This document shows positions 43,783 through 63,760 of a stretch of 63,760 nucleotides of DNA, piece after piece. The notes under the pieces were generated by a model. It saw nothing but the letters and a program-made list of their open reading frames with translations. It made no database searches and was not told where the DNA came from. Origin of the DNA: Bacteroidota bacterium (GTDB lineage Bacteria > Bacteroidota > Bacteroidia > 2-12-FULL-35-15); contig JBQTHQ010000008.1 in NCBI GenBank assembly GCA_052389695.1, positions 1 through 63,760 of the forward strand, given 5' to 3'. Both the position numbers and the translations under genes were made by a program. Each line of letters opens with the position of its first letter. Position 1 is the stretch's first letter.

Positions 43783-43895
43783 CAGTACAAAATATGAATA
43801 TTGTTTAAATTTACAAATACTGGAAATAAGCCGCTATAATGCAGTATAAATTAATAAATTGTATCTTCGTAAACCAACACTGGATTGATTATTCT

Positions 43896-48261: not shown

Positions 48262-49486
48262 AATACGGAAAAAACTCAATATTGTAGTTGACAAAACAAC
48301 GAACAATGACTTGGCACATCTAACCCATTATTTACAAAACCACAAAAACGGAGTTTCACAATACTTTAAGCCTAATGCTACAAGTTATTTGACTGACTTG
48401 CACGCGGAATTGAATATTTTACAAGAGCCGGACTTTCAATATTATTTACCAATCAAATGGGATATTCCTTTTCCACCGGAGACAAATCCTAAATTCAAAT
48501 TTATAGACCTGTTTGCAGGTATTGGTGGTATCAGACTTGCTTTTCAAAATCTTGGTGGCAAATGTGTCTTTACAAGTGAATGGGACACTTACTCTAAGAA
48601 AACTTACGAAGCAAATTTTGGCGAAGTTCCCTTTGGTGACATAACGAAAATTTCAGAAAAAGAAATTCCCGATCATGACATTTTACTTGGTGGTTTTCCC
48701 TGTCAACCCTTTTCTATTGCGGGAGTTTCAAAGAAAAATGCCTTGGGCAGAGCCCACGGTTTTTTAGATGAAACACAGGGAACATTATTTTTTGATGTTG
48801 CAAGAATTATAAAACACAAAAAGCCTTCGGCTTTTATGTTAGAAAATGTAAAAAATCTTGTTTCTCATGATAAGGGAAAAACTTTCAAAGTAATTACCGA
48901 AACATTGAAAGAATTGGGATACTCAATTCATTTCAAGGTATTGGATGGAAAATATTTTGTTCCTCAACACAGAGAAAGAATAATTATTGTTGGTTTTAGA
49001 AATCAAATTTTTAAAGGCAAAGAATCTTTTGTATTTCCTAAAATGAGCGAAACCAAGTTTGCTATCAAAGACATTTTAGAAACTACTGTAGATAAAAAAT
49101 ATACTCTTTCGGCCCACCTATGGAACTACTTGCAAGAGTATGCTAAAAAACATAAAGCGAAAGGAAACGGTTTTGGCTTTGGGCTTACAGACCTTAATGG
49201 CATTTCAAGAACAATGAGTGCAAGATATTACAAAGACGGAGCTGAAATTTTAATTCCTCAAAAAGGTAAATGCCCGAGACGCTTAACACCAAGAGAATGT
49301 GCAAGACTTCAAGGCTTTCCAGATACATTTTTAATTCCTGTTTCAGATAATCAGGCATACAAACAGTTTGGCAATTCGGTCGTAACACCATTGATACAGG
49401 CGGTTGGAAAAAACATCGTAAAAGAAATTTTAAAGTTAAATGGAGAGCATTCTCACAAAAGCAATAGAGTCAGCGCAGCAGTCTGA
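48242..49486 (+). CDS. dcm: DNA (cytosine-5)-methyltransferase, Dcm/M.EcoRII-like
   Basis: C5-MTase motifs [44 protein letters not shown] and X GNSVVTPL. The ~75-aa N-terminal extension resembles that of Dcm. Confidence 0.92.
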
Positions 49487-50609
49487 AATCGCATATTGCA
49501 AATTTCTTGCAGCTAATGATACAAAGGCTACAAATGCACATCAGAGTGGTTATTTGATTAGTAAATCTGCTTGGAGACTTTTTCTAAATCATGAACCTCA
49601 GAAAGGTGAAAATTTAAAGGAAGAAATTATAATTAAATGGCAATCAGATTTTGAAACAAGTAGCACTTTCACGTATTATGGCGCTGCAAAAAACGAATTT
49701 AGACTTACAAATTTTGGCAGGAACTTTCCTTTTAGAGAAGAAGATAATGTTGGAGATCTTTTTGTTTTATGTAAAAAGGGCAAGGGCTTTTTTGAAGCAT
49801 ATATAATTTCAACAGATGAGGAAATTGATGAGTTTTTTGCAGCATTAAATATTTCGGCAACCGAAACAAATGGAATCATTCCAAAACAATTTGAAGCTAC
49901 CACAGAAGATAAACTGATGCAGTGTTTCCTTGGGTTTTTGAAATCACTCAAGTTTGAATTTCCAACAACAGTCGACCTTGCAACCAATTCGAGAAATTGT
50001 TACCTCGGAGCATACAGTATTACGTCCCAAGTTGTAAAAGCAAATCCTGATCGGGAAATTTTGAATTGGCTACATGCAGAATTTCAGCTTTTCAAAGTCA
50101 TCGAAAATGACAGGTATAATAGCAGAATAAAAACACCTTTCAAGACAGTTGAAGAACTTGTTGAAACCGCAAACACAATTTTGAACAGGAGAAAAAGCCG
50201 AGCAGGAAAATCCCTTGAACATCATCTTTCTGAAATTTTCAGAACATTTCAACTTTCTTATGCAACCCAAGCAGTAACGGAAGACAATAAGAAACCGGAT
50301 TTTCTTTTTCCAAATGTTGATGCTTATTACAATGAGAAATTTAGTGCAAAGAAATTAGTTATGCTCGCATCCAAGACAACCTGCAAAGACCGTTGGCGAC
50401 AGATATTAAATGAGGCAGACCGCATTAAAACAAAACATCTTTTTACTTTACAGCAGGGAATTTCTAAAAACCAGCTTGAAGAAATGTATAAATACAATGT
50501 GTGTTTGGTCGTACCAAAACAATATTTGACGAGTTTTCCTGCCGACTTCAGAGAAAGAATTTTAACGCTGGACAGTTTTGTAAATCATATTCAGGCGACA
50601 CAGAAATGA
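49440..50609 (+). CDS. EcoRII-family type IIE restriction endonuclease
   Basis: 389 aa. The N-terminal effector-domain motif is [21 protein letters not shown] (EcoRII: RLSANDTGATGGHQ). The C-terminal catalytic block [15 protein letters not shown]...NKKPDFLFP...[33 protein letters not shown] closely matches my recollection of EcoRII. Overlaps dcm by 47 nt. Confidence 0.85.
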
Positions 50610-50718: not shown

Positions 50719-51972
50719 TTATACTTCCCTAACCTTATTCTTCTCCTCTATCCACTTCGACATGTATTTTGAACTTACCATACTGTGATGCATTAACATG
50801 TTACCGGTAAAGTTTTGTTTGCGATGATCTTCTAAATTATTTTGCAGTGCTAAAATTCGTTGGATTAATTCCGCCCCCAATAATTCTTTTGAGTAAATAA
50901 CATTGATAATATTTTTACCCTTGGCTTGTGATTGCTGCCAAAGAATATTATCAGTGTATAATTTCACAGCGGCCTCAGCTAAACTTTTTGCATCATTTTC
51001 AATTGATCCACTCCACTCCAAATTTCCATGCATGGCTTCTGCACCAATTGAAGTGGTAACGCTGGGCGTACCGCATTGCATAGCTTCTACCAGTTTACCC
51101 TTTATACCTGCACCAAAACGTAATGGAGCTAAACACACCCTGGCTTTGCTCATTACTTCCTTAGCATCCTCTGCCCTGCCCTTAACATAAAAACTTTCTT
51201 TCGGTTGATGCAATTCATTTACTTTTTGTGAAGGATAGGCGCCATAAATATGTAATTCTGCTTGTGGTAATTTTTTTCGAATTAACGGCCAGATCTCTTC
51301 TTTTAAAAATAAAACAGCGTTCCAGTTAGGTTCATGTAAAAAATTACCAATGCTTATAAAATGTTCACGCTCTTCAAAATTTTTCCAGCTATGAATAATT
51401 TTATCATCGATAAGATCCAACATAAAAGGAATATAATGTAATAAAGCTTTATCTACTTTAAATTGCTTTTCAAGAATATTCATCTCGAAATCAGAAATGA
51501 TCAGAGAAAGATCAGAACGATATATACTTGCTACTTCCCGTTTTGCAACATCTTCTGTCAATAAATCATTTACACTAAATTTTCTGTTTTCTTTAAATGC
51601 TTTTTGTCGTGCTGAACGCAAACAATGAAGGTCTTCGGTATCCAATATTCTCATTGCTTTCGGGCATTGCTCCACGATACGCCATCCGAATTGCTCTTCG
51701 GTCATAAAACGGTCAAATATTACAATATCCGGTTTTAATTGCTGAATGAAGGAATCAAAACTATTATTATTCAGCTCAATAGTTACTTTTTCAACACCTG
51801 TCTTTTTAAGATCAAACATAAATTCACTGTCAGCCGCAGCGCTGGCAAAAGTAATTTTCCAGCCTTGTAACTGAAACAATTCGATCAACTGCATCATACG
51901 ATTTCCGGCAGCGGAGGAACATGGTTCAGGCCAAACAGTACCTATGATCAAAATATGTTGCGGTTTATCCAT
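50719..51972 (-). CDS. Glycosyltransferase, GT-B fold (family 1/4-like)
   Basis: 417 aa with the C-terminal Rossmann half RFGAGIKGKLVEAMQCGTPSVTTSIGAEAM. Confidence 0.75.
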   Translation of the reverse strand: MDKPQHILIIGTVWPEPCSSAAGNRMMQLIELFQLQGWKITFASAAADSEFMFDLKKTGVEKVTIELNNNSFDSFIQQLKPDIVIFDRFMTEEQFGWRIVEQCPKAMRILDTEDLHCLRSARQKAFKENRKFSVNDLLTEDVAKREVASIYRSDLSLIISDFEMNILEKQFKVDKALLHYIPFMLDLIDDKIIHSWKNFEEREHFISIGNFLHEPNWNAVLFLKEEIWPLIRKKLPQAELHIYGAYPSQKVNELHQPKESFYVKGRAEDAKEVMSKARVCLAPLRFGAGIKGKLVEAMQCGTPSVTTSIGAEAMHGNLEWSGSIENDAKSLAEAAVKLYTDNILWQQSQAKGKNIINVIYSKELLGAELIQRILALQNNLEDHRKQNFTGNMLMHHSMVSSKYMSKWIEEKNKVREV

Positions 51973-52030: not shown

Positions 52031-52077
52031 ACTTACAACTTACAACTTATAACTTACAACTTATAACTTTAAACTTA
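52031..52077. repeat. Word-repeat tract (ACTTACAACTTATAACTT words)
   Basis: The tract reads acttacaacttacaacttataacttacaacttataactttaaactta. It is preceded at 52000-52022 by cttcgataagctcagactgagcc, another REP-like word common in Bacteroidota. Confidence 0.6.
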
Positions 52078-53490
52078 TTTCTCAAGACTTACATTTTCAT
52101 CTCCTTGCCGGTAAGGTAAATAAGTAATGATAAACTGGAACATTTCATCTGTTGTTCGCATGCTTCCTTCCCGCTCTGCTACCAGTCGTGGCGGACTAAA
52201 AGGATTATTCGGGTTATGACGGGTATTGTCATATACACCTTCAATATGTATAGTAGCACCACATGGAATTTTCAACATTTTTTTAAACGTATAAAAATAC
52301 TGCCAGCGGAAATCCCATTTTTTTATCCGGATCAGTGGAATAGTATCACCTTGTGAAGTATATGCATACGCTAAAAAACTCTTGCCCAGCAAATGCATGT
52401 GCGGATTAACAGTGAGTATTGAAATATCAAAAGGTAATGTATAATCGGAATGAAAGGTCATAATAGTATCCGGTGGGATCACCAATTTAGGAATAGTTGG
52501 AGAAACCCCATACGTTCCCATTTGAAATTCAAGCGTTGGACGCTTTGGTTTTTCCTCTGCAAAAAACACATTAAACGCTGTTTGATCAGTAGTATCCACA
52601 CGTGAAGGCCCATAATGAATGTCCCTTAGAAAAAGAGCACCTTTTCGTGTCAGTTTAAATCCGCCTATACCATCGGGATAAATCGGGGGTGTAACACCGG
52701 GCAAATAATTGGTAACGGACTGTGTGAGTGCAGGAAATGTTTCTCCGTCATCGTTTGGCAAACCTAATTCTTTATAGGCTTGCAATTTATCAGGAAATTT
52801 TTCGAGATCAACAACCGTATTTCCTGCAAACACATCTTTCTTTTTGTCAAAATCATAACTTAACAATTGCGCATTCACATGATGAACCAGCTTTTTGTTA
52901 TCAGGTACTACTTCTATCACGCGCACAAATGTGTCTTTGGCAATTTCATATGGCACACGCATCAATAAGAATTGATCCTGTGCATCGCCTTTTATTTTAT
53001 ACACATCTTTTAATTTAATTACCAGGTCAGGTTTGCCTAATTGTGAGCCTAAGGGGAAGAAAGGAGGTTCAGGTATTTTTGTTGAATCACCGATCAGGCA
53101 ACCTTCATCCACCCAGCGTGTGATCAGCTGGATTTCCTCATCGGTGAGTACTTTCTCATCTATAAAATGAGAATAAGCGGCATCAGCAGGCCATGGTGGC
53201 ATAAAGCGTGTTTCTGTAACAAATTTCATTAGTCTGGCACGTGAGGCTGCATCCTGATAGGTCAACAAATTAAACGGGCCTGCTTCACCCGGACGGTGGC
53301 AGGATGTACAGTTTTTATAAATAATCGGAGCAACGTGTTCCGAATACGTGATTTGCTGCGGTTTTTCATCTCCATTACAGGAAATAAAAAATGATGCCGC
53401 CAGCAACAACAAAAAACAATGTCTTGTATCTTTTAAAACTCTCAACGTTATATAAATGAAAACCACTACAAAATTAAGTGAATGTTCCAT
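52075..53490 (-). CDS. Haem-c domain fused to a PHM/DBH-like type-II copper monooxygenase; lipoprotein
   Basis: Signal peptide and lipobox (LLLLAASFFISC); a TTG at 53445 is an alternative start. Has CTSCH (CxxCH haem-c site). Copper ligand motifs align to peptidylglycine monooxygenase: LVHHV (HH), IHYG (H), NPHMHLLGK (HxH) and TTDEMF (Met). Confidence 0.8.
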   Translation of the reverse strand: MEHSLNFVVVFIYITLRVLKDTRHCFLLLLAASFFISCNGDEKPQQITYSEHVAPIIYKNCTSCHRPGEAGPFNLLTYQDAASRARLMKFVTETRFMPPWPADAAYSHFIDEKVLTDEEIQLITRWVDEGCLIGDSTKIPEPPFFPLGSQLGKPDLVIKLKDVYKIKGDAQDQFLLMRVPYEIAKDTFVRVIEVVPDNKKLVHHVNAQLLSYDFDKKKDVFAGNTVVDLEKFPDKLQAYKELGLPNDDGETFPALTQSVTNYLPGVTPPIYPDGIGGFKLTRKGALFLRDIHYGPSRVDTTDQTAFNVFFAEEKPKRPTLEFQMGTYGVSPTIPKLVIPPDTIMTFHSDYTLPFDISILTVNPHMHLLGKSFLAYAYTSQGDTIPLIRIKKWDFRWQYFYTFKKMLKIPCGATIHIEGVYDNTRHNPNNPFSPPRLVAEREGSMRTTDEMFQFIITYLPYRQGDENVSLEK

Positions 53491-53495
53491 ATCAT

Positions 53496-53795
53496 ATGAA
53501 TTATTCTTTCAAAGTTACTGCATGTGTATTTATCCTGTTATTTACCTCCTCCTGTAGAAAACAGATAACAGGCAATCCCTATATCGACAGAAAAATAAGT
53601 GTCAGCCAACAACAGGCAAGAGAAGAGCAAAAGCTCATTGCCAACCAAAACAAAGCGTATGCCGATCAATTAAAGGAAAACCAAAAAAATATCATAAAAA
53701 ACAATGATGAATTTTTCGAAAAGAAAAAACAATATAAACACCTTACCAAAGGTAAAAAAAGAGTAAAAAAGTCTAAGGACCGATCTCAATTTTAA
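53496..53795 (+). CDS. Small Lys-rich lipoprotein, paralogue A
   Basis: MNYSFKVTACVFILLFTSSC lipobox, then CRKQITGNPYIDRK...SQQQAREEQK. The tail is ...HLTKGKKRVKKSKDRSQF. It is paralogous to the next ORF. The track's GTG at 53478 is a possible alternative start. Confidence 0.6.
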   Translation: MNYSFKVTACVFILLFTSSCRKQITGNPYIDRKISVSQQQAREEQKLIANQNKAYADQLKENQKNIIKNNDEFFEKKKQYKHLTKGKKRVKKSKDRSQF

Positions 53796-53827: not shown

Positions 53828-54082
53828 ATGATTATCTTTGTTTTGATGGTAAGATTCCGCATTACCCTTATTACTTTAACTTGTGCTTTTGTTTTAAGTA
53901 CAATGACTTCCTGCCGTAAAAAAGGTCCATACAATCCTTACCTTCATACGAAAACGAAACCAAGTGAGCAACAAGCCAAAGAAAAAAAGAGAATCTTAAG
54001 AAAAGGAAATCGGGCTTATAAAAAACAATTAGGAGATAATAGAAAACAAATATTTGGAAGAAGAAAACCTCCGAAGCAATAA
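53828..54082 (+). CDS. Small Lys/Arg-rich lipoprotein, paralogue B
   Basis: LTCAFVLSTMTSC lipobox, then CRKKGPYNPYLHTK...SEQQAKEKKR. The tail is ...RKQIFGRRKPPKQ. Confidence 0.6.
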   Translation: MIIFVLMVRFRITLITLTCAFVLSTMTSCRKKGPYNPYLHTKTKPSEQQAKEKKRILRKGNRAYKKQLGDNRKQIFGRRKPPKQ

Positions 54083-54083
54083 C

Positions 54084-54902
54084 ATGATCCCGGTCAAAGA
54101 CTTTATTTTACTTATCCCTTGCTACAATAATGTTGCCGGACTTTCCAGGTCCATTAACAGCATTCAATATCCAATTGATAAGTTTGAAATACTGATTGTA
54201 GATGATGGCAGTGCGGTTCCTATTGTTACTGACAATTTTAATAATGCCATTCCGGGAACAACAATTCAAATTATTCGAATTTCACAAAATCAAGGCATAG
54301 TAAACGCCTTAAATAGTGGATTAAAAGAATTAAAAACACGTAATGACTATAGATACATTGCCCGCCTGGATGCAGGTGATACTTGTCATCCGGAACGGTT
54401 TACAAAGCAGGTTGAATTTTTAGACCTGCACTCCGATGTCTTTCTTTTAGGTTCCTGGTGCAGATTTGAAAACTCAATAACTAAAAAAGGATACAATTAT
54501 ATCACTAAAACAAAACATGAGGATATTATAATAGAAATGCATTATAAATGCTCTTTTATTCATCCTACAGTAATGTTTAGAAAGGAAGTATTAGAAACTA
54601 TAGGAGTATACCCAACAAATTATCCACATGCGGAGGATTATGTATTTTTTTGGAAGATAATAAAGAAACATAAAACAGCTATATTAGATAAACAATTGGT
54701 GATAATTAACTATAAAGATTCCAGCATTTCCTCAAAAAATTATAAAACACAGCTACGAACAAGAAAAAAAATTATAAAACAATTTGGGTCTCTTGCACTT
54801 AGTAAGTTAGCAGGCGTTCTATTATTATGGTGTAAATTACTAATCCCGAGGGCAGTCCTTCAAAGAATTAAAACTAATTTACAAGAAGGAGTTTTTCGTT
54901 AA
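54084..54902 (+). CDS. Glycosyltransferase family 2
   Basis: ATG at 54084, 2 nt after the upstream stop; the track's 54054 start overlaps the previous gene. Has LLIPCYNN, IVDDGS and RLDAGD (DxD) motifs. Confidence 0.8.
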   Translation: MIPVKDFILLIPCYNNVAGLSRSINSIQYPIDKFEILIVDDGSAVPIVTDNFNNAIPGTTIQIIRISQNQGIVNALNSGLKELKTRNDYRYIARLDAGDTCHPERFTKQVEFLDLHSDVFLLGSWCRFENSITKKGYNYITKTKHEDIIIEMHYKCSFIHPTVMFRKEVLETIGVYPTNYPHAEDYVFFWKIIKKHKTAILDKQLVIINYKDSSISSKNYKTQLRTRKKIIKQFGSLALSKLAGVLLLWCKLLIPRAVLQRIKTNLQEGVFR

Positions 54903-54935
54903 TGAGTAAATGTTATTGATGACAAATCTAATTAT

Positions 54936-55655
54936 ATGAAGAAATTAAAATTTGATTCAGCCCCTGAATGGGTAACAATCATTGGAGAATTCGGACCAAA
55001 TTGCATTTTACTATTTGGCGAAAAAGCTTTATCGAAGGGCTCAAATAAAAAATTGGCGCTGAATATAAATAAATTATCACCTACTAATAATATATCCTCT
55101 ATTGAAATTGCAATAGAGGATATGGAAGGACGTATTAATATCTGGTTCGGAGATATTAATAACAAAATAAATTTTAATACAGGAACAAAGGGCAATTATA
55201 ATATTACCATGTATAAGAATTCGGCACTGCTCATTGGAGAGAATACTACTGCCAATTCGATAAGGATTGTTTGTGATAATTCTATTGTAGAAACGGGACG
55301 GGACTGTATGTTTTCTGATGAAATACTTATCCAATCCGCTGATCAACATGGCATAGTAGATCTGGAAACAAAACAAATAATTAATTCTCACAAAAGAAAA
55401 GTTGTTTTGGGTGATCACATTTGGGTTGGGAGAAGAGCAATTATAATGCCCGATGTAAACATAGGAGATGGTTCAATTATTGGAACAGGGGCTATCGTAA
55501 CTAAAAATGTTGAAAAGATGACAGCTGCGGCTGGAATTCCTGCAAAAACAGTAAAGGAAAATGTAACCTGGAGCAGAAGCCCGTCAAGATTAGATTCATT
55601 TTCTCAGCTGTATATTGACAAATTTCATGAGCCTTTAGCCGAAGAAAAGAATTAA
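54936..55655 (+). CDS. Left-handed beta-helix (hexapeptide-repeat) acyl/acetyltransferase
   Basis: The C-terminal half has hexapeptide repeats: LGDHIWVGRRAIIMPDVNIGDGSIIGTGAIVTKNV. Confidence 0.75.
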   Translation: MKKLKFDSAPEWVTIIGEFGPNCILLFGEKALSKGSNKKLALNINKLSPTNNISSIEIAIEDMEGRINIWFGDINNKINFNTGTKGNYNITMYKNSALLIGENTTANSIRIVCDNSIVETGRDCMFSDEILIQSADQHGIVDLETKQIINSHKRKVVLGDHIWVGRRAIIMPDVNIGDGSIIGTGAIVTKNVEKMTAAAGIPAKTVKENVTWSRSPSRLDSFSQLYIDKFHEPLAEEKN

Positions 55656-58006
55656 TTTATTTTTTTAAAAGAAAATCGCCTGAAAACACTGCCTATTTTC
55701 AAAAACCATTTTGGCAAATGAGAATAAGTAGCTAGAAACCATTCTTTTTGCTGATTTAGATCTGAAAGCTTTTCATCCAGTTCCATATGCTTCTTGTCGG
55801 CATCATTTAACTTATGGCGCAGAAAATCCATATTCGACTGTAAATTATCAATCTGTATATTTAACTGCCTGTTTTGATTCTGAACCTCTGCGATCCTGAG
55901 CTGATAATTTTTGATGTTTTCTGAAAAGTTATTTCTTTTTTCAATTCCTCCTTTCAATGCAGAGTTTAATTGCTGTACTTCATTAATTCTTACTTTGTAA
56001 TCTGTAATTTCATTTGTTAATGAAGTAGTTCTGTTTACAAATAAATCAACCCTTCTTTCCAGATCATTTTTAACGGTAGTTAACCGGGTAAAATCATGCA
56101 GATATTTGTTTAATTTTATATCTAATTCGCCTTTTTCTTTCTGCAGTGGAATTAATTCTTTATCAACCTCGGATTTGGGGAGTAAAACTCTTTTATTTCT
56201 TAAAAAATACATATCTGATCTGTCGTCAATTTGGGCGCCAAAGCTTATAAAATCTGTAATTGATTTAAATTTTTTAGCGGCTTCTTGCCAGTTTTGAAAA
56301 TAAATTTCTTCTTGCTCAGCAAAGGAAAAAGAATTGATCAGTTTATTGAATTTTTTGAGGTATTTTAATTTCAAAAAATAAAAATTATATGCATCCAACC
56401 AGTTCTCTGTTTTTACCTGTGAAGGTTTAAGCTTTACCATTGCTTCCTTCACCACCCCCATTTTATACAATTGAAAAAATCGGAGATTTAATTCCAGATC
56501 CTGGTGCCTGGTGTATGTTTCGTCAAATCCTGAAAGTCTTTTTAATGTGTAACTTTTGTATAATGCCGTATTGGTGCATAAATAATGGTTTTTATATTGA
56601 AGCGTCAGCAAATCATATGTTAAATCACCTTCCTTATACCTGCGTAAATCATTACTATCGGAGTTCCAACCGAGATAACCACAATATACCGCACCATAAC
56701 CAGAAGGATATTTTTTTATTGCTTCAATACTTTTTTTAACTTTTTCAGGCAAATAAACATCATCATCATCCAAAAAAGAGATGTACTCACTATTGGAGTA
56801 CTTTAAGCCTAAATTTCTGGCTTCTGCACCATTCAGGGCATGGGCACCTTTAATATATATCACATTGGGATAAGCATTCATCAGCTTCTCTGTTTCCTGC
56901 CTGTATTCCGATTCAGGATCATTCGCATCTATTACAATCACTTCAATATTCTTATAGGTTTGGCTCACAACCGATTCTATTGCCAGTTTAAGGTTCTCTG
57001 GCCTTCTATAAGTAGGAATAATTACAGTTACTTTATCAACGCATTTAAAAAATCTATCAAAATACCCATCCTGAGGAAAATTAGTTTTATAAGGTTGAAT
57101 AGTATTTTTTAAGAATTCAAACACGCCAAGTATTTCCAGGCGTTCATAAGGTTCATTCTGAATAATCTCTTCAACAACGCTGAGATATTGTTTTTTTTGC
57201 TCATTGGAAAGTTCAAATTTACGAAACACAACTCTTATTTTCTCTTCCAGCCACTTTCCGAAAAGTTCTACATTATCTTTTAAAATCTTATACCCTTCAG
57301 TATAAATAATTTTTAAAGATTCTAAATGCTTTTGGTTAAAATTGGTTGATGTAATACTTTCTTCACGCCGTCTGTATTTGTATACAGGCTCTTCGACAAA
57401 AACCACCTTTTCTACTTTTGTATTCAACAACAATGAAAAAGGCTCATCTTCAAAATACATTCTTTCAAAGAATCTCAGGTTTTTTAAAATGTTTATTGAA
57501 TATAATTTGTTCCACACAACAACATTGAACATCTTAATTTTATTGCCTAAAAATTTGGCACCAAAATCTTCGATTACTTCTAACTTATTTTTTTGATACA
57601 CGCTAACAAACTCAAGTTTTTCATTGTAATTATTTATACCCCCTATAGCAATATCTGATTTGGTGTCTGTTATTTGGTCATAAAGCACTTTTAGTGCATT
57701 CGGGTATAAAACATCATCACTATCCAGGAAATATATATAATCAGCACTTGCTTTCTCAATTCCAGTATTTCTGGCACCTCCAAGGCCTTTATTTGAAGGG
57801 TGCCTGATAATTTTAAAATTCTTAATATGTTTTTTTGAAAATCTGTTTTTTATTACATCAATACTTTTGTCAGGAGAGCAATCATCAATAATCAGCACTT
57901 CAATATTGGAAATTCCAATAGTTTGGTTTATCAGACTGTTTAAGCAATCTTCGATATAATCTTCAACATTATAAACGGGAACTATAACTGATAAAAGCTT
58001 TTTCAT
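55652..58006 (-). CDS. Dual GT2-domain glycosyltransferase with C-terminal coiled coil
   Basis: First GT2 domain: SVIVPVYNVEDYI...IIDDCSPD...FLDSDD. Second GT2 domain: VTVIIPTYRRPENL...VIDAND...FLDDDD. It is followed by ~170 aa of heptad-like Q/N/L/K-rich sequence ending in EWFLATYSHLPKWFLK. Confidence 0.8.
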   Translation of the reverse strand: MKKLLSVIVPVYNVEDYIEDCLNSLINQTIGISNIEVLIIDDCSPDKSIDVIKNRFSKKHIKNFKIIRHPSNKGLGGARNTGIEKASADYIYFLDSDDVLYPNALKVLYDQITDTKSDIAIGGINNYNEKLEFVSVYQKNKLEVIEDFGAKFLGNKIKMFNVVVWNKLYSINILKNLRFFERMYFEDEPFSLLLNTKVEKVVFVEEPVYKYRRREESITSTNFNQKHLESLKIIYTEGYKILKDNVELFGKWLEEKIRVVFRKFELSNEQKKQYLSVVEEIIQNEPYERLEILGVFEFLKNTIQPYKTNFPQDGYFDRFFKCVDKVTVIIPTYRRPENLKLAIESVVSQTYKNIEVIVIDANDPESEYRQETEKLMNAYPNVIYIKGAHALNGAEARNLGLKYSNSEYISFLDDDDVYLPEKVKKSIEAIKKYPSGYGAVYCGYLGWNSDSNDLRRYKEGDLTYDLLTLQYKNHYLCTNTALYKSYTLKRLSGFDETYTRHQDLELNLRFFQLYKMGVVKEAMVKLKPSQVKTENWLDAYNFYFLKLKYLKKFNKLINSFSFAEQEEIYFQNWQEAAKKFKSITDFISFGAQIDDRSDMYFLRNKRVLLPKSEVDKELIPLQKEKGELDIKLNKYLHDFTRLTTVKNDLERRVDLFVNRTTSLTNEITDYKVRINEVQQLNSALKGGIEKRNNFSENIKNYQLRIAEVQNQNRQLNIQIDNLQSNMDFLRHKLNDADKKHMELDEKLSDLNQQKEWFLATYSHLPKWFLKIGSVFRRFSFKKIN

Positions 58007-58047
58007 TTCTATAATTTACTCTGGTCGGATAATTTCTATTAAATCGG

Positions 58048-59379
58048 TTAATACCTTACTTCTAATTGTTTTCTTATTTTTTCATTTTCTTCTTTAAGTG
58101 CTTTTATTTCATGCTCTTTATCCAATAATAATTTATTGAAATAATTTTCACTTTTTTCTTTTTCAAACAATTCACACTCTCTGAAATATTCTGAAATACG
58201 GTACTGTTTATCAATATGATTAGGAATTATTTTTCTCATCCAGATATTTAAGTACATTTTTTTGAGATTCAGATTATTATTCATCTGCTTCGCATTTTTT
58301 ACAAAAGGATTTTTTATCAATTCCGCACACAAACGGATTAGAAAATTGTCATACATTTCCTGCAAATAACCCAATTTAGTAACACTCTTATATGCTTCTT
58401 CAGCCATTTTTCTTTTTTTGTCGGGGTTTTGAAATAAATAAACAATACTTTCTACTATAGCATTAACATTTCCAATATTTGTAATGAAACCATTTGAGCC
58501 ATTATCAATAATTGATGCTATATTACCTACATTAAATGTTATAGGGACAACCATACACGACATGGCTTCATAAACTACAATTGGGCCACCCTCGAAATTT
58601 GAAGTTACAATAAGTATATCCGCAACTTTCATATAATTCAAAACCTCTTTGGGAGTATGAGCATTTTCTATAAACTCATATTGATCAGTTGTATCACCAA
58701 ATTTACTCCGAAACCGATCTTTCAGTGAATCCAGATCGATGCCTTTACCAAGAATTTTCAATTTAAACTTAACCTTTCTTTTAACCAGTTCTTCATAAAT
58801 AGAAATTAATCTAAAAACACCTTTTGAAGCATCTTCGATCCTTCCCACAAACAAAACCGAAATTTCATTTGAATGATTATCCCAATTTTTTTGATGACTT
58901 ATTGAAGTTGGGCATGGATGATAAAGAATATCTTTTTTTCGGTCAGGAATTACCTTGACAAGATCATCTTGTATGGTTTTACTTACACAAATAAATTTAG
59001 ATATGATTGGCTCATACAATTTAAGCGTATCGTAATAATATACAGCCGCATTATGGCTATATCCGATAACCTGTATGTTATCCTTTACTTTTGTCACGTA
59101 GTTATACATTACCTCGTAAAGTTTCGAGTTCCATGACATAATAACAACATTATGTGCGTGATTTTCATTTTTCACTAAAATCAAAAATTCTTCCGTTGTT
59201 AGTATAGGAATATGTTGCTGCATATCCGCCAACGCTTCAACAGGAATATTCCTATGAGCAACGGACTCAACCAGGAAAATCTTATACCCTTTCTTATATA
59301 AGGATAAACCGGTATATATTGAGAAGAATTCAACCCCTCCCATTGAAAAACAAGGCACATCTATGTATATGTTAATCAT
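58048..59379 (-). CDS. GT-B (family 4-like) glycosyltransferase with a short C-terminal coiled coil
   Basis: Has the EX7E-type motif FEGGPIVVYEAMSCMVVPI. The tail is KLLLDKEHEIKALKEENEKIRKQLEVRY. Confidence 0.75.
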   Translation of the reverse strand: MINIYIDVPCFSMGGVEFFSIYTGLSLYKKGYKIFLVESVAHRNIPVEALADMQQHIPILTTEEFLILVKNENHAHNVVIMSWNSKLYEVMYNYVTKVKDNIQVIGYSHNAAVYYYDTLKLYEPIISKFICVSKTIQDDLVKVIPDRKKDILYHPCPTSISHQKNWDNHSNEISVLFVGRIEDASKGVFRLISIYEELVKRKVKFKLKILGKGIDLDSLKDRFRSKFGDTTDQYEFIENAHTPKEVLNYMKVADILIVTSNFEGGPIVVYEAMSCMVVPITFNVGNIASIIDNGSNGFITNIGNVNAIVESIVYLFQNPDKKRKMAEEAYKSVTKLGYLQEMYDNFLIRLCAELIKNPFVKNAKQMNNNLNLKKMYLNIWMRKIIPNHIDKQYRISEYFRECELFEKEKSENYFNKLLLDKEHEIKALKEENEKIRKQLEVRY

Positions 59380-59392
59380 ACTGTACTCTTTG

Positions 59393-61729
59393 TTATTTTA
59401 ATTGAAAAACAAAATGTCCTTTATGCGATTTATTAAATTGCATTTTAAAATTGTACTGAAACGCCCACATCGCTGCAACCTTTTGTTCATCTTCACGACC
59501 GCCATCATCAAGCATTACCGTTGTATTCGAACGAATGTGTTTCAACAATAAGGGCACGGCCGGAAACCTTGCTAATTCCTGTGTGATACCCGGCGGACCA
59601 TCAATATTTACAATAGTAATATCCGGCGGAAATTTCACCTTGGAAATATCATACCACATCCACTTTTTCTTATTAATGGTGTATTCCTTTAAGGGACAAT
59701 GATACAATTCTACAAACTCTTCCAAATGATGTTCCTTTACCATTCTCTGTACCGACTTAAAATAATTTTTATCATGTTCAAGCGCAATAACTTTCCCCTG
59801 ACCTCTTTTTTGTAGTATATAGCCAAAAATTAAAGTTGAAACCCCCGAACCCACATCTATCACATTCCCTCTCACCTTGGATAATGTTGTTTTTACAAGA
59901 TCGAGAGCATAATCTGATGTTATTGCCCAATCGTTCATCACCGGTAATGGGCTTTTAATATCAATCATTCGGTGAATTGAGAATAGAGAATCTATTCTGT
60001 CATAAATATATGATAGTTCGCTTTTGGTACTTCTATCTAACCACCCCATCTTATTGGAGATCAAATCCAGTATTTTAGTTGATGAGAAGTCGATTTCTTT
60101 TTTATTCCTGTCAACCTGCGCCATAAGATTAGTGAGGTTGTTTTTTAAATCATTGGCTTTAGTTTGATATTCAACTTTTAGCTCCTTTAGATTGTTAATT
60201 AATGATGCATTACCTTGAGTATTTAAATTGCCATTCATTTCAATCTGCTCCACCAGGTTATTTACTTTTGAAGAAATTACAGTTACTTTCTCTATCTGAT
60301 TTGCTGCTATCTTATTTATATCTGTTAAATGAACTTCCAACTTAGCAATAGAACCGGCGCCCTGATCTTTTAAATGATTTATTTTTTCAGAAAGGACAAT
60401 TAAAGCTTCATTGAACCTTTGCTCTGTTTCCACATCTTGTGCTTTAACTGCACTGATATACTCATGTAATTGTTGAATTGCGGTCTTAAGCACATCGGAT
60501 GCCCCGACAGTCTGACTTTTCAACTCATTTATAGAATTTTTAAAAGCATTGGATGATTCGAGCTCTCCTTTCTTCAATTCATCAATTGCAACTTTAATTT
60601 TATCAGATGATATAAGTCCTTGACCCTTTAATTCATTGATGGAATCTTTTAACGTTTTTGATGACTCCAACTCTCCCTTCTTCAATTCATCAATTGCACC
60701 TTTAATTTTATCAGATGATGCAAGCCCCTGCCCTTTTAATTCATTAATTGAATTCTTCAACGCATTGGATGATTCCAATTCCCCTTTCTTCAATTCATCA
60801 ATTGCGCCTTTAATTTTATCAGATGATGCGAACTCCTGCCCTTTTAATTCATTGATGGAATTCTTTAATGCATCGGATGATTCCTGTTCATACTTCCTCA
60901 ACTCATTAATTGTTCCTTGAAGTTTATCCGAAATTTCGAGCTCCTGCTTTTTTAATTCTTCGATAAATTTTGGTACTTCTCCAATAGATGTTTTTAATTC
61001 CTTTGCAGAATTGGCTTCCTGGATTTTAACATTATCGATATTCTGAAATAAATCCCCTAATGTTTTTCTAATTTTATTGGCAGCATCTAGTTCTTGAACT
61101 TTAATTCCCTCTAAACTATGAGCCACAGTCCCCAATAAAGTCTTAATATTTTTAGCAGCATCTTCTTCCTGAACCTTTATAATATTAACATGTTGTTTCA
61201 AGTCTTCTATAGCAACATTTAATCTGTTTGAATTATCTAGCTCTTGTTCTTTTACCGAATTCATATCGCGATACAGGCTTGATACTTTTTCATTCAGCTT
61301 CAACATCTCTTCTTTTCTTAAATTGGCCTCCATACCGGTGTTTTCAGAAGAAGTTGCCAATAAATTTGAAAGCTCTGATTTTTTCTCTTCCATCTGTTGA
61401 ACAACCTGTTCCATTGTTTTCTGCTCAAAGCTCTTTAAATCATTAACTGCTTCTCCCAACCCCAATACCATTTTTTGCTCCAATAAACCGAACTTTACCT
61501 GCATGTCCTCCTGCAACCGTTTGATCTCTTTAAAATTATTGGCGGATAGCAAACTAAACTGATAAATAATAAAATAGGATAATACAATTACGATTTGAAC
61601 TATGACTGAAGCTGCTATTACAGCAGGTTCAATACCGAAATACCAAAAGAGAAAACATGTGAAAACCGCATTTAGTATTGTTAAGAGTATAGAAATTACG
61701 TTTACCCGTCTCTTCAGAATAGGATTCAT
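59393..61729 (-). CDS. Membrane-anchored long coiled-coil protein with C-terminal class-I SAM-methyltransferase-like domain
   Basis: 778 aa. Two N-terminal TM helices, then ~480 aa of repetitive coiled-coil sequence with an 18/36-aa periodicity. The C-terminal ~190 aa has NVIDVGSGVSTLIFGY (a Gly-rich SAM loop), VIALEHD and VNIDGPPG. Confidence 0.75.
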   Translation of the reverse strand: MNPILKRRVNVISILLTILNAVFTCFLFWYFGIEPAVIAASVIVQIVIVLSYFIIYQFSLLSANNFKEIKRLQEDMQVKFGLLEQKMVLGLGEAVNDLKSFEQKTMEQVVQQMEEKKSELSNLLATSSENTGMEANLRKEEMLKLNEKVSSLYRDMNSVKEQELDNSNRLNVAIEDLKQHVNIIKVQEEDAAKNIKTLLGTVAHSLEGIKVQELDAANKIRKTLGDLFQNIDNVKIQEANSAKELKTSIGEVPKFIEELKKQELEISDKLQGTINELRKYEQESSDALKNSINELKGQEFASSDKIKGAIDELKKGELESSNALKNSINELKGQGLASSDKIKGAIDELKKGELESSKTLKDSINELKGQGLISSDKIKVAIDELKKGELESSNAFKNSINELKSQTVGASDVLKTAIQQLHEYISAVKAQDVETEQRFNEALIVLSEKINHLKDQGAGSIAKLEVHLTDINKIAANQIEKVTVISSKVNNLVEQIEMNGNLNTQGNASLINNLKELKVEYQTKANDLKNNLTNLMAQVDRNKKEIDFSSTKILDLISNKMGWLDRSTKSELSYIYDRIDSLFSIHRMIDIKSPLPVMNDWAITSDYALDLVKTTLSKVRGNVIDVGSGVSTLIFGYILQKRGQGKVIALEHDKNYFKSVQRMVKEHHLEEFVELYHCPLKEYTINKKKWMWYDISKVKFPPDITIVNIDGPPGITQELARFPAVPLLLKHIRSNTTVMLDDGGREDEQKVAAMWAFQYNFKMQFNKSHKGHFVFQLK
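60571..60894 (-). repeat. Three tandem 108-bp coding repeats (plus degenerate copies either side)
   Basis: tcttcaattcatcaattgc recurs at 60571, 60679 and 60787, an exact 108-nt period. The first ~45 nt of each unit are nearly identical. Each unit encodes ESS.ALKNSINELKGQ..ASSDKIKGAIDELKKGEL. Confidence 0.9.
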
Positions 61730-61787
61730 ATGGCTATGTTTTTGAATAATAACATGAAAAGCCCTGATACATGTTACGCATTCGTCT

Positions 61788-61795
61788 CAAATATA
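61788..61795 (-). promoter_or_regulatory. -7 box TATATTTG for the coiled-coil methyltransferase gene
   Basis: The reverse complement of caaatata is TATATTTG, ~58 nt upstream of the ATG at 61729. Confidence 0.35.
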
Positions 61796-61830
61796 CAAAT
61801 AAATTATACAAACCCCTGATTAAAAGCCTA

Positions 61831-61859
61831 TTGGCATGGAGAAATTATGCGTATTTTTG
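61831..61859 (+). promoter_or_regulatory. Bacteroidota-type promoter (TTG -33, TATTTTTG -7) for the 61888 gene
   Basis: TTG at 61831-61833 is 18 nt upstream of TATTTTTG at 61852-61859. The ATG lies 29 nt downstream. Confidence 0.4.
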
Positions 61860-61887
61860 GTATGTTTTTGTACGAATACATTAAAGT

Positions 61888-63760
61888 ATGAGTAAAAAGA
61901 ATTACATAAGTTTAATAATTCCTGTATATAACTGCGAAAAATTCCTGCCAGCATTGTTTTCATCTATTGATAATCAATCAGTCAAACCAGGCGAGGTTAT
62001 TATAATTGACGACAACAGCGTTGACAATAGTGCTAAATTAATCAAGGAGTATGCGAAACACAATAACAATATAAAGACCGTTTTTTTACGTAAAAATAAG
62101 GGTGTTTCGTATGCTCGTAATAAAGGCTTTGAACTTGCTAAAGGTGATTATTTATGGTTTATTGACGGCGATGACCAGTTAAATGATAACGCTCTTAAAG
62201 GCATTTATTCGGAAATTCAAAAAAATAATAGCATAGAAGCTTTTGTTTCTGGATACAATAATCTGGATGGACAGGGAAATTTTTTATCCGAACGAAAATT
62301 CCTTCAATTTGATATCAAAAAGTCGTATCCCGGTTCTGAAATCTTTAAACAATTCAACCCTGCACCATGGAATAAAATTTTTAAAACTTCTTTTTGGAAG
62401 AAACACAACTTTACCTTTCCTCTTAACATCAGTATATCCCAGGATCTATCTATTATTTATTATGCTATTTTTAAGGCATCTAAAGTAAAAATATTACCAA
62501 ACTGTTTATACAACTATTGTTATAATGAATCCAGTACTGTAAATTCATTCAACACAAAAAAAATCAAAGATATTTTTGCCGGCAATCAACAACTTTTTAA
62601 TAATTTTTTTACCGAAAAAAAAGCGCTCAGTGAAGCAATTAAGCTGGAAGTTTCTGAAATTTCTATTCATTCCATAGATTATTTTTATTGTCGGTTTCAA
62701 TCATCTTTTTCAAAAAAAGACCATTTACTATTTTTAGATCTCTTCAATAATTTTTTAGGTACAAACAACATTGACATACACTCACTTTTAAGCTGGGAAA
62801 TAGGTTCAAAAACTTTGATTGAAGTAGACAAAGGAATAGTTTCCAATCGCATAAAAGGGTTCATAAATGTACCTTTTCGCTCCGACAAACTGCTAACACA
62901 AATCCAGAAAATAAAAAAATTGGAACTAAGCAATGCTCAAACCATACAGGATTTACAGCAGGAAATTACGAATCAAAAATACCTTTTATCACATGAAAAA
63001 GAAAATTATGAACTGCAACGTAACGGCTTAAATGAAAAAATACACGAACTTGAAAAAAATATACATGAACACATCGCCTTTGGATCTAAAAAAGATGAAC
63101 AGGTCAATTCACTTTCTGTAGAAAAACAACAACTGCTTGAAACAGCAAAAATGTTGGAAACATCATACATTCAAAAACAAAACAGTTTAAATAATTCCAT
63201 AGAACAATTAAATCATCAGCTTCAAACCAAAGAACAAGAGGTAAAAAGTCTTCAAAAAAAACTAACATCAAGTGAAGATCAAAATAAAGAATATAAGCTA
63301 CGCCTTGATAAGATACGGTTACAAAATGAAAAATTAGAACAAAATATCGGAAATATTCAAAACAGTTTGATTTCAAGTGAAGAACAAAACACAAATCATA
63401 AACTGAACATTGATAATTTGTATTCGGAAAACAAATTGTTAATTGAACAAATTCAATCAAAAAAGAATGAAATCAGTCACCTTCAAAACAAGTTAATATC
63501 AAGCGAGAGCCTAAACAACACTTATAAAAATCAGAGCTTTAAACTGGAATTGGAAATTTCAAAATTAAGCGAAGCTATTAACTGGTACAAAAGAACTTAT
63601 CAAGACCGAAAGCTACCGGGAATTATAAAAGACAGAATCATCAAAACCATTCCATTATTCCGCTCTGAAAATTACATTTCCCAATGGAAAAATTTAACCA
63701 GAATATTCCGTCGCAAGAACAAATTAAAAAAAGCGACTGTAAAAAGCACTGTAAGTAAAA
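61888..63760 (+). CDS. GT2 glycosyltransferase with long C-terminal coiled coil, 3' end outside window
   Basis: Hand translation from the ATG at 61888, which is preceded by an in-frame TAA, shows no stop to the window end (624 codons). It begins MSKKNYISLIIPVYNCEKFL...VIIIDDNSVDNS...WFIDGDD (GT2). A coiled coil of at least 240 aa follows with ~37-aa repeats (LQKKLTSSEDQN / IQNSLISSEEQN / LQNKLISSESLN), then INWYKRTYQDRKLPG. It is absent from the ORF track because there is no stop codon in the window. Confidence 0.85.
   Translation, partial: MSKKNYISLIIPVYNCEKFLPALFSSIDNQSVKPGEVIIIDDNSVDNSAKLIKEYAKHNNNIKTVFLRKNKGVSYARNKGFELAKGDYLWFIDGDDQLNDNALKGIYSEIQKNNSIEAFVSGYNNLDGQGNFLSERKFLQFDIKKSYPGSEIFKQFNPAPWNKIFKTSFWKKHNFTFPLNISISQDLSIIYYAIFKASKVKILPNCLYNYCYNESSTVNSFNTKKIKDIFAGNQQLFNNFFTEKKALSEAIKLEVSEISIHSIDYFYCRFQSSFSKKDHLLFLDLFNNFLGTNNIDIHSLLSWEIGSKTLIEVDKGIVSNRIKGFINVPFRSDKLLTQIQKIKKLELSNAQTIQDLQQEITNQKYLLSHEKENYELQRNGLNEKIHELEKNIHEHIAFGSKKDEQVNSLSVEKQQLLETAKMLETSYIQKQNSLNNSIEQLNHQLQTKEQEVKSLQKKLTSSEDQNKEYKLRLDKIRLQNEKLEQNIGNIQNSLISSEEQNTNHKLNIDNLYSENKLLIEQIQSKKNEISHLQNKLISSESLNNTYKNQSFKLELEISKLSEAINWYKRTYQDRKLPGIIKDRIIKTIPLFRSENYISQWKNLTRIFRRKNKLKKATVKSTVSK

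Follow-up and report, generated by a model that had tools for sequence, protein, structure and literature searches.

The six adjacent genes at positions 54084-63760 of the window (the whole 63,760-nucleotide stretch of Bacteroidota DNA that was analysed) encode what seems to be the O-antigen chain-length "molecular ruler" turned back to front, in a form not described before. In protein E, a transmembrane (TM) hairpin (aa 11-55) and a helical rod (aa 59-560) precede a methyltransferase fold (aa 575-778), so that the catalytic domain lies distal to the membrane attachment. Our preferred reading, to which we give about an even chance, is that the region is the variable glycosyltransferase (GT) and terminator part of a Bacteroidota surface glycan (O-antigen-like) cluster of the Wzm/Wzt type. 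E would resemble WbdD in being a distal O-methyltransferase that caps or terminates the chain, but with its polarity inverted and its anchor embedded in the membrane, and the GTs would be held at the membrane by their tails. That E acts as a ruler is an inference.

The genes encode, in order, a GT2, a hexapeptide acyltransferase, a protein with two GT2 domains and a coil, a GT4, a protein with two TM helices, a long helical region and a methyltransferase, and a GT2 with a coil. The initial annotation had described these six genes and their domains, and both are borne out by gene calls and Pfam matches. The features are as follows.

54084..54902, + strand: gene A, GT2 glycosyltransferase, 272 aa (PF00535, 1.9e-19, 70.6 bits)
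54936..55655, + strand: gene B, hexapeptide-repeat O-acyltransferase, 239 aa (PF00132, 1.2e-6)
55652..58006, - strand: gene C, 784 aa, two GT2 domains, heptad coiled coil and basic/aromatic tail (PF00535, 6.3e-67, two stretches, 225 bits)
55655..55741, - strand: C-terminal tail of C, aa 756-784, WFLATYSHLPKWFLKIGSVFRRFSFKKIN (tail HMM, 4.2e-22)
55739..56191, - strand: heptad coiled coil of C, aa 606-756 (hydrophobic period 3.5, z = 12.2, p <= 0.001)
58048..59379, - strand: gene D, GT4 glycosyltransferase, 443 aa (PF00534, 8.1e-29, 100.8 bits)
58051..58182, - strand: charged C-terminal helix of D, aa 400-443 (flagged in a 28-residue heptad scan)
59393..61729, - strand: gene E, 778-aa membrane-anchored rod-methyltransferase (gene call, domains, hydropathy, AF2)
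59396..60007, - strand: predicted C-terminal class I SAM-dependent (COMT-like) methyltransferase domain of E, aa 575-778 (PF13578, 1.5e-6)
60050..61555, - strand: helical rod of E, aa 59-560 (~500 aa), with 18/36-aa repeats (hydrophobic period 3.60)
61565..61699, - strand: TM hairpin of E, aa 11-55 (hydropathy; alignment of 27 relatives)
61888..63759, + strand: gene F, GT2 and heptad coiled coil, at least 624 aa, open at the window end (PF00535, 2.2e-32, 112.7 bits)
62878..63585, + strand: heptad coiled coil of F, aa 331-566, 236 aa (period 3.5, z = 9.3)
63583..63642, + strand: variant motif of F, WYKRTYQDRKLPGIIKDRII, common to the protein of the related locus L011 (WYKRTYENRKLIGIIKDRII)

Anchor, rod and methyltransferase domain of protein E

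Hydropathy places the two TM helices that had been proposed for E at aa 11-29 and 37-55. In an alignment of 27 relatives the hairpin has conserved polar residues, L-T/S-x-x-N in TM1 and Q/E and Y in TM2. The hairpin has basic residues on either side, which suggest an N-in/C-in topology; the rod and the methyltransferase would then be cytoplasmic. The inverted arrangement of an N-terminal anchor and a distal C-terminal methyltransferase, also proposed initially, agrees with the positions of hairpin, rod and catalytic domain.

The C-terminal domain scored 29.5 bits against PF13578 (Methyltransf_24, cut-off 26.3) and was modeled by AF2 with a pLDDT of 94.8. In Foldseek this model matched O-methyltransferases (probability 1.00, TM 0.6-0.7), including COMT-like enzymes and the sugar O-MTase MycF. 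Together these results point to a class I SAM-dependent O-methyltransferase fold, as the annotated SAM-methyltransferase-like domain had implied. A profile of the domain searched against the PDB matched only COMT-like O-methyltransferases (catechol OMT, 1e-5). Its motifs are GSGxST, LEH, WYD, DGPPG..Q..ARxPA.P and LDD..R.dE; GSGxST, the glycine-rich SAM loop, and LEH are conserved, and acidic residues follow strands 2, 4 and 5. From the strand topology, we take the invariant acidic residues at the ends of strands 4 and 5 (D151, D182 and D183 in domain numbering) to be the topological equivalents of the metal-binding residues of COMT-like enzymes.

The region between anchor and enzyme had been called a repetitive coil of ~480 aa, which does not hold for a heptad coil. 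When hydrophobic periods were compared with 1000 shuffles (catalytic-domain controls gave z <= 2.9 at period 3.5), the E sequence had a strong 3.60 (18/5) periodicity (z = 8.4) and no heptad signal (z = -0.8 at period 3.5). What lies here is an amphipathic helix with a regular period, a rod rather than a coiled coil of the canonical type. The repeat units of 18 and 36 aa carry a GQG/SS linker, with a Gly/Ser break about every 36 aa, and the DNA contains a tandem repeat at 60516-60958 with a period of 108 nt (36 aa) and 4.1 copies. The rod evolves fast, by sequence change and by indels or repeat expansion, against 72% identity kept in the catalytic domain, and N-terminal extensions in the E family range from ~0 to ~780 aa. 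Most long-rod relatives also have the 3.6 period.

These properties bear on whether the rod is a distance ruler or instead a membrane-surface or folded scaffold, such as a stack of helical hairpins, that provides a platform organising the tail-bearing GTs. A scaffold of this kind seems improbable to us. It would be served by the straight hydrophobic stripe that a period of 3.6 gives and by the 18- and 36-aa units with their linker. The single-chain AF2 model is mostly helical and breaks the rod at G-rich sites into helices of ~20-90 aa, so that the rod need not be extended and may instead be folded or divided into segments; however, this model is unreliable (pLDDT 42). Hydrophobic density is also low (~4/18 positions) and charge is high, and some relatives have rods with clean heptad (3.5) or hendecad (3.67) periods, which are typical of extended coiled coils.

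Glycosyltransferases, their coils and their tails

Proteins A, C, D and F all scored above the Pfam gathering score for GT2 (PF00535) or GT4 (PF00534). A has a hydrophobic C-terminal helix (aa 236-254, by hydropathy) and orthologues in most related loci, with matches of 1e-41 to 1e-102 in L002, L004, L006, L007, L009 and L010. Gene B, convergent with C, matches the WbbJ/maltose O-acetyltransferase-like (Maa-like) NCBIfam model at 1e-16 and may O-acetylate the glycan; a screen of L002-L021 found no B-like protein in those loci.

Protein C has a 769-aa orthologue in L006 and a 689-aa one in L002, and is joined to a D-like GT4 in L007 and L011. D itself has an orthologue in L006 (1e-185), and its residues 2-398 align to the N-terminus of both fusion proteins. 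Because D and C are a single polypeptide in these relatives, D may dock non-covalently to C. The charged C-terminal helix of D, which has no counterpart in the fused proteins, is too short to be significant as a coil in the periodicity test and may be a short zipper. The initial annotation had assigned a coiled coil to each of three GTs and to the methyltransferase; this stands for C and F, both with a period of 3.5, lacks statistical support for D, and does not hold as a heptad coil for E with its period of 3.6. The coil of C gives weak profile matches to tropomyosin, filament and SMC proteins, and the GT coils could dimerise or trimerise their enzymes. A hetero-oligomeric coiled-coil scaffold that includes E, as had been suggested, is disfavoured, since helices with periods of 3.6 and 3.5 would probably be unable to stay in register over long distances.

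What the GTs of homologous clusters conserve is the C-terminal tail, not the coil. The tail of C is amphipathic (net charge +6, hydrophobic moment 0.72) and follows the strongly conserved consensus WYxxTYxHLPKWxxKxGxxFRR. Tails of the C type are also present on GTs of L002-L004, L006, L007, L009 and L022-L026, and those of related GTs are likewise amphipathic with net charges of +4 to +7. Such tails could hold the GTs at the inner membrane face, beside the undecaprenyl-linked acceptor.

The coils of C and F had been reported to end in a shared motif, W[FY]xxTYxxxLP. A related motif is found in both proteins, but the exact pattern fits neither, as C (WFLATYSHLP) has two residues and F (WYKRTYQDRKLP) four in place of the last three x. 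In both proteins the motif follows the coil. The version in F is a variant that probably lies inside the protein, judging from L011, the sole relative with this variant. The L011 protein is at least 1015 aa long, with the motif at aa 517 and, after it, more sequence including a second GT2 domain, so the coil of F is probably not the end of the protein. F is divergent from E, as are the F-like and E-like genes of L006 and L011.

Related loci and the candidate role of the cluster

An E-like gene lies directly upstream of tail-bearing GTs in 13 Bacteroidota loci: the window, L002, L003, L004, L006, L007, L009, L022 (Brumimicrobium aurantiacum), L023-L026 and, with diverged variants, L027. The GT coils of homologous clusters are short or absent (0-86 aa). 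Where the downstream region is visible, related clusters end in wzm, then in wzt if the locus reaches that far. Both genes are present in L002, L003, L004, L022 and L025, and L027 shows wzm before the locus ends; neither was seen within the DNA examined of L006 and L007, the closest loci, or of L023 and L024. A WaaL-like Wzy_C gene adjoins the E-like gene in L002-L005, L009, L010, L022, L025 and L026, and dTDP-rhamnose genes are directly upstream in L023, L024 and L026. The assignment of the region as a glycan-assembly cluster holds, and the ABC-transporter-dependent kind is supported by wzm, mostly with wzt, in six related loci.

Could the cluster belong to a pathway other than that of an ABC-transporter-dependent O-antigen, making another glycoconjugate (capsule, glycolipid or protein-linked glycan), with E methylating a lipid or protein? 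The wzm and wzt genes downstream of the E-like gene in five related loci and wzm in a sixth (L027), as well as orthologues of A, C, D and E of the window in those clusters, make this unlikely. In its favor, the window contains no wzm/wzt, initiating transferase or ligase, and L006 and L007 have no wzm/wzt in view either; F runs off the window end, however, so the missing genes may sit on the unseen side. Short relatives of E that have no rod (30-35% identity) occur in unrelated, non-glycan neighborhoods, and a Wzy_C protein may equally act as a polymerase or as a protein O-oligosaccharyltransferase; both points count for such a pathway as well.

If E is a terminator, it would O-methylate the non-reducing end of the growing chain, with its active site far from the membrane, up to ~70 nm for a fully extended rod and less for a segmented one. 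In each of the nine loci measured, the rod (150-532 aa) exceeds the partner GT coil (0-135 aa) in length. This fits the geometry published for such systems, in which the polymerase lies close to the membrane, the terminator sits at a distance from it and the partner GTs are placed at the membrane (PMC11231755). Several observations argue against the preferred reading. The window has no exporter, initiator or ligase, the rod is not heptad, and rod length and GT coil length are not correlated (rho 0.33, p 0.38, n = 9). The Wzt proteins of related clusters (244-247 aa) consist of an ABC_tran domain only, without a carbohydrate-binding module (CBM), whereas in every characterised terminator or ruler system Wzt has a CBM that recognises the terminal cap (PMC11231755). 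Moreover, the rodless relatives of E lie outside glycan neighborhoods, and related clusters encode another Methyltransf_24 enzyme, a soluble one, which could be the methylase that in fact acts on the glycan.

Some of the same evidence would suit tethering without measurement, which we regard as possible, if somewhat doubtful. The coils, tails and rod would then only anchor or oligomerise the enzymes, E would add internal O-methyl groups, the rod would be a drifting low-complexity spacer, and chain length would be set by export coupling as in CBM-less Wzm/Wzt systems. The absence of the CBM and of a length correlation is in line with this, as are the very variable rod length, made by tandem repeats, and the coil lengths of 0-135 aa among orthologous tail-bearing GTs. 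It accounts less well for a rod that is always much longer than the partner coils, for the fixed position of the E-like gene at the head of the GT block, and for a 150-530-aa rod whose 3.6 periodicity is kept across diverged relatives. For a tether alone such a rod would be a high price, as the TM hairpin is already enough to anchor the enzyme. Taken as a whole, the observation in the initial annotation is partly confirmed and its interpretation partly supported.

Comparison with known systems

The methyltransferase domain of E shares with COMT, CCoAOMT and TylF-MycF (Pfam Methyltransf_3 and Methyltransf_24) the fold, the glycine-rich SAM loop and the acidic residues after strands 2, 4 and 5, at only 9-18% sequence identity to solved structures. 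The E family differs in having its own motifs, DGPPG..Q..ARYPA.P and WYD, and a domain that is always C-terminal, behind a TM hairpin.

WbdD of E. coli O9a and K. pneumoniae O3 and O5 terminates the chain with a methyltransferase(-kinase) mounted on a coiled-coil molecular ruler. Like WbdD, E has a membrane attachment, a long helical spacer and a distal SAM-dependent methyltransferase. Its gene likewise lies amid the GT genes of a glycan cluster, which in relatives ends with wzm/wzt, and its partner GTs are predicted to sit at the membrane, as those of WbdD do. The polarity of E is reversed, with an N-terminal anchor and a C-terminal enzyme. In place of an amphipathic helix, the anchor of E is a TM hairpin of two helices that is integral to the membrane and has conserved polar residues. 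Its spacer, with a period of 3.6 instead of heptads, is two to three times longer than that of WbdD. The methyltransferase of E is COMT-like (Methyltransf_24) and has no detectable sequence relation to any solved structure: phmmer of E against all PDB chains, which we take to include the WbdD structures, gave no match at E <= 1. A Pfam search found no kinase domain in E, and the CBM of Wzt in WbdD systems is missing from the E-related clusters.

WbbB of K. pneumoniae O12 and ORF6 of O7 combine terminator, coiled coil and polymerase GTs in one polypeptide. F may have the same domain order: within the window it shows a GT2 and a 236-aa heptad coil, and its L011 relative continues beyond the coil with more sequence including a second GT2 domain. 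Unlike WbbB and ORF6, F has an ordinary GT2 as N-terminal module and no GT99 Kdo transferase or methyltransferase, its C-terminal part lies beyond the window, and the rod-borne methyltransferase of its cluster is a protein of its own.

ORF7 of K. pneumoniae O4, a terminating GT with a C-terminal coiled coil, resembles C in its N-terminal catalytic GT and C-terminal coiled coil, an order that also occurs in other coiled-coil proteins of these pathways (PMC11231755). C differs from ORF7 in that the coil is nearly absent in some of its orthologues, in its WYxxTYxHLPKW...GxxFRR tail, a feature not described for ORF7, and in its two GT2 modules, which are typical of polymerases.

Composition and surroundings of the glycan cluster

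Six adjacent genes occupy the last 9.7 kb of the window. The initial annotation had read 54084-63760 as a glycan cluster, and this was confirmed by domain matches (PF00535, PF00132 and PF00534).

Genes of the cluster (GT, glycosyltransferase; TM, transmembrane)
A, 54084-54902, plus strand: GT2 with a hydrophobic C-terminal helix (PF00535, 1.9e-19)
B, 54936-55655, plus strand: hexapeptide O-acyltransferase, WbbJ/Maa-like (PF00132)
C, 55652-58006, minus strand: 784 aa, two GT2 domains (PF00535, 6.3e-67)
D, 58048-59379, minus strand: 443 aa, GT4 (PF00534, 8.1e-29)
E, 59393-61729, minus strand: 778 aa, two TM helices, a long helical rod and a methyltransferase domain
F, 61888 to beyond 63759, plus strand: GT2 of at least 624 aa, open at the window end (PF00535, 2.2e-32)

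The intergenic gaps are 13 nt between E and D and 41 nt between D and C; C and B converge with a 4-nt overlap, and E and F diverge from a 158-nt spacer. The GC content is 0.316-0.333 across 54000-62000, compared with 0.35-0.39 in most of the window and about 0.36 overall outside the cluster. Low GC is typical of variable surface-glycan clusters. The 63.7-kb window lacks wzm/wzt and wzx/wzy, as well as genes for an initiating transferase or a WaaL-like protein.

The remainder of the window is ordinary Bacteroidota chromosome, with mreBCD/PBP2/RodA, leucine biosynthesis, carB and proteins having T9SS sorting domains. The C-terminal sorting domain (PF18962), present on a CotH-kinase-domain protein and an HYR-like protein (44624-46204 and 17794-19371, respectively), marks the window as Bacteroidota. 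Just upstream of A are two adjacent small paralogous ORFs (53478-53795 and 53828-54082; 105 and 84 aa), each with a lipoprotein-like signal peptide whose last residue is Cys and with a tail rich in K and Q, and neither with a Pfam match. A 471-aa protein (52075-53490) with weak copper-monooxygenase C-terminal and cytochrome-c-like matches lies between the cluster and another GT4 (50719-51972, 417 aa; TIGR03087 stp1-like, 3.8e-24). A Dcm-type C5 cytosine DNA methylase (48242-49486; PF00145, 8.5e-100) overlaps an EcoRII-like restriction endonuclease having both EcoRII-N and EcoRII-C domains (49440-50609); judged by these domains, the two are a complete type IIE restriction-modification pair (48242-50609), a few kb from the glycan genes. 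Sizeable ORFs lacking a Pfam match at the thresholds used are found at 1328-3370 (680 aa), 16223-17788 (521 aa) and 43839-44627 (262 aa), and neither tRNA genes nor Rfam families (gathering score) were detected in the 63.7 kb.

Helical regions and the methyltransferase protein E

Periodicity of hydrophobic residues was scored against 1000 shuffles. Residues 606-756 of C and 331-566 of F peak at exactly 3.5 (z = 12.2 and 9.3, respectively), with catalytic-domain controls at z of 2.9 or less for this period; both regions are canonical heptad coiled coils, as had been proposed. The short coil ascribed to D did not hold up: the helix at approximately residues 400-443 has an I-L-N-I-L zipper-like pattern, its periodicity is not significant, and it is too short for the test to count as an established coil. 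D was thus rejected, as unproven, as a bona fide coiled-coil protein.

For E, a coil of about 480 aa had been claimed. The region is indeed long, repetitive and helical, but it is not a heptad coil: residues 59-560 give a sharp peak at 3.60 (z = 8.4) and no signal at 3.5 (z = -0.8). An 18-residue repeat, ELKxxExxSSxxLKxxIx, agrees with the 3.60 period, and the underlying DNA includes a 108-nt tandem array of 4.1 copies (60516-60958). The single-sequence AF2 model of full-length E is unreliable (pLDDT 42), so only secondary structure was taken from it, namely a helix that runs almost unbroken between residues 3 and about 586, interrupted briefly at glycine-rich sites. Most of 42 relatives with rods of at least 150 aa peak at 3.56-3.64, a few are clean heptads (3.5) and one is a hendecad (3.67). 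Since the periodicities differ (3.6 versus 3.5), a hetero-coiled coil joining the rod to the GT coils was rejected; the hetero-oligomeric scaffold suggested initially finds no support, and any single scaffold of this kind that includes E is unlikely.

The closest relative of E, P0002 (742 aa), is 72% identical in the catalytic domain and only about 25-30% identical, with indels, in the rod, which keeps 36-aa repeats of its own. Diverging in this way beside a conserved enzyme, the rod behaves as a spacer. A competing, less likely explanation is that the rod is a surface or folded scaffold.

The proposed inverted topology of E, with an N-terminal anchor and a C-terminal methyltransferase, agrees with two hydrophobic helices predicted by the hydropathy profile (residues 11-29 and 37-55). 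Basic residues flank both ends, suggesting a hairpin of N-in/C-in topology and a cytoplasmic location of rod and enzyme. Polar residues are kept within the predicted membrane spans of the hairpin (residues 11-55; 61565-61699) in E and 26 relatives: TM1 has L-T/S-x-x-N, TM2 has Q/E and Y. A conserved W follows TM2. Such conservation suggests more than a passive anchor; the hairpin may have a specific partner within the membrane or may oligomerise.

That the C-terminal domain is SAM-methyltransferase-like is well supported. Its AF2 model from a 30-sequence alignment has pLDDT 94.8, and the best Foldseek matches in the PDB are COMT-like family-3 O-methyltransferases, TrmR and the sugar O-methyltransferase MycF (probability 1.00, TM 0.6-0.7). 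A phmmer search with E against all PDB chains gave no match; a domain profile was needed, and it reached catechol OMT at 1e-5. Conserved motifs are GSGxST, LEH, WYD, DGPPG..Q..ARYPA.P and LDD..R.dE. Invariant aspartates stand at the ends of strands 4 and 5, which we take, from the topology, to be the positions where COMT-like enzymes bind metal.

An exhaustive HMMER search with residues 560-778 of E found 5585 cluster representatives at E <= 1e-3 (504 at 1e-30). Among the best 150 of these, the methyltransferase domain is always C-terminal (median 2.5 residues after it), 87 have two N-terminal hydrophobic helices, and lengths range from 179 to 1010 aa, with 89 below 320 aa and 36 of at least 450 aa. 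Short relatives lacking the rod (30-35% identity) have unrelated housekeeping genes as neighbours. Source annotations read "hypothetical protein" or "class I SAM-dependent methyltransferase", and NCBIfam has no specific family for E. When full-length E was the query of a word-indexed search, coil words swamped the candidates and E itself was the sole match.

A shared glycosyltransferase tail and the related loci

Related loci (numbered with an L below) were gathered around 13 E-like genes, the metagenome scan using a six-sequence alignment. C ends in WFLATYSHLPKWFLKIGSVFRRFSFKKIN, and the consensus of this tail, WYxRTYDHLPKW(F/Y)LKIGxIFRR, is almost invariant. An HMM built from eight tails also matched in loci not used in building it: L007, L009, L022 (Brumimicrobium aurantiacum), L023, L024 (Fulvivirga sp.), L025 and L026. 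The number of tail-bearing GTs per locus is one to four (L027 with diverged variants), and the carriers are GT2, GT4, GT25+GT2 and multi-GT proteins. E-like genes stand beside tail-bearing GTs; the expected accompanying coil is variable, the heptad stretch directly before the tail being 0-135 aa among the loci and longest in C of the window. A profile search with a 45-aa tail alignment gave 55 candidates, none of which scored; the distribution described here covers E-like loci.

With an 11-mer hydrophobic moment of 0.6-0.7 the tail is amphipathic; it is also aromatic and basic (net charge +4 to +7). These properties fit an interfacial membrane helix. Loci of the Flavobacteriales type and of the Cytophagales type carry the tail in nearly identical form, which suggests that it also has a specific partner.

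One motif had been described as ending the coils of both C and F. This is true of C, where it is the C-terminal tail, but the F variant, WYKRTYQDRKLPGIIKDRII, is internal in the relative from L011, the only locus where it recurs. That protein (at least 1015 aa) has the variant at residue 517, followed by further sequence including a second GT2 domain, and F therefore probably continues beyond the window in a WbbB-like order. Scanning the contig collection with F gave a single distant match (L001, 38% over 98 aa), and a word-indexed search with its GT2 part gave one close relative on a 3.6-kb contig.

The recurrent gene order is [A-like GT2 - GT4 - WaaL-like Wzy_C], E-like, one to four GTs with the tail, small soluble Methyltransf_24, a 713-720-aa GT4+GT2 protein, Wzm and Wzt. 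Both wzm and wzt are present in L002, L003, L004, L022 and L025; L027 ends after wzm, and L026 stops just short of the expected position. In these seven loci the 3' end has, ahead of the Wzm/Wzt position, a conserved module of a GT2 of about 320 aa with the tail, a soluble Methyltransf_24 of 203-211 aa and the GT4+GT2 protein, none of which is found in the window. The Wzt proteins (244-247 aa) have no carbohydrate-binding module (CBM), and dTDP-rhamnose genes lie directly upstream in L023, L024 and L026.

The loci closest by methyltransferase-domain identity (L006, 67%; L007 and L011, 58%) share the window's order E-D-C(-A) with a divergent F-like gene, and their available sequence holds no transporter genes. 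A less likely explanation is that the cluster belongs to another pathway, to be weighed against the transporter-bearing loci. In L007 (2122-6555, 1478 aa) and L011 (5995-9918, at least 1308 aa) a D-like GT4 is fused to a C-like GT2, which are two adjacent genes in the window; we take the fusion to indicate cooperation between D and C. The C-terminal helix of D has no counterpart in the fusions.

Possible mechanism and comparison with known systems

In the published paradigm, a coiled coil has one end at the membrane and carries the terminating enzyme at its far end, polymerising GTs are near the membrane, and the CBM of Wzt passes only capped chains to export (PMC11231755). E would supply the distal terminating element, with the polarity inverted and with TM helices as the anchor, and the tail-anchored GTs would supply the near-membrane polymerase element. 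In each of the nine loci where both were measured, the rod (150-532 aa) is longer than the coil of the partner GT. We therefore favour E as a distal O-methyl capping or terminating enzyme, with about even chances. The third element, a CBM on Wzt, is absent from the related clusters. The coils, tails and rod may instead serve for tethering only; rod and GT coil lengths show no significant correlation (rho 0.33, p 0.38, nine loci).

Taken together, the components could form an undescribed terminator-polymerase assembly, a joint reading that we regard as rather improbable in its entirety. The tail, as a docking peptide, would bring GTs of different families to a common partner, for which the best candidate is E, through either its TM hairpin with the polar residues or its juxtamembrane part. 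The straight non-heptad (18/5) rod, growing by expansion of 18/36-aa repeats, would set the O-methyl-capping distance, and export would proceed without a CBM checkpoint. The GTs of the window's genome have acquired long coils (150 and 236 aa), and these would give several nested distance settings.

If the family is a ruler, the principle would have arisen anew in a protein of opposite polarity, anchored by integral membrane helices and built on a non-heptad rod, and would work without a CBM checkpoint. It would be common in environmental Bacteroidota (5585 representatives; 36 of the best 150 are long), and glycan length could be predicted from the genome simply by reading off the length of the rod. 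As a portable tag for recruitment, the shared tail would be of interest for glycoengineering. With a complete example in the cultured B. aurantiacum, the idea is directly testable.

To our knowledge, established cases of chain-length control by a coiled-coil ruler are limited to a few proteobacterial O-antigen systems, and all rulers known to us have the order catalytic domain, coil, amphipathic helix and are paired with a CBM-bearing transporter. E has no match among PDB chains (phmmer) and no kinase domain; it is therefore not a homologue of WbdD and at best a functional analogue. F probably shares the domain order of WbbB, as its L011 relative suggests. The architecture had not been recognised as a described system: the literature searched gave proteobacterial prototypes only, although an earlier mention is possible, for example in the 2019 terminator survey, reportedly a bioinformatic one by Mann et al. 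in Glycobiology. On the whole, the initial observation was largely right and its interpretation partly supported. Three elements are new in comparison with the known systems: a non-heptad rod-methyltransferase that is inverted and TM-anchored, a conserved tail on the GTs, and the CBM-free Wzt of the related clusters.
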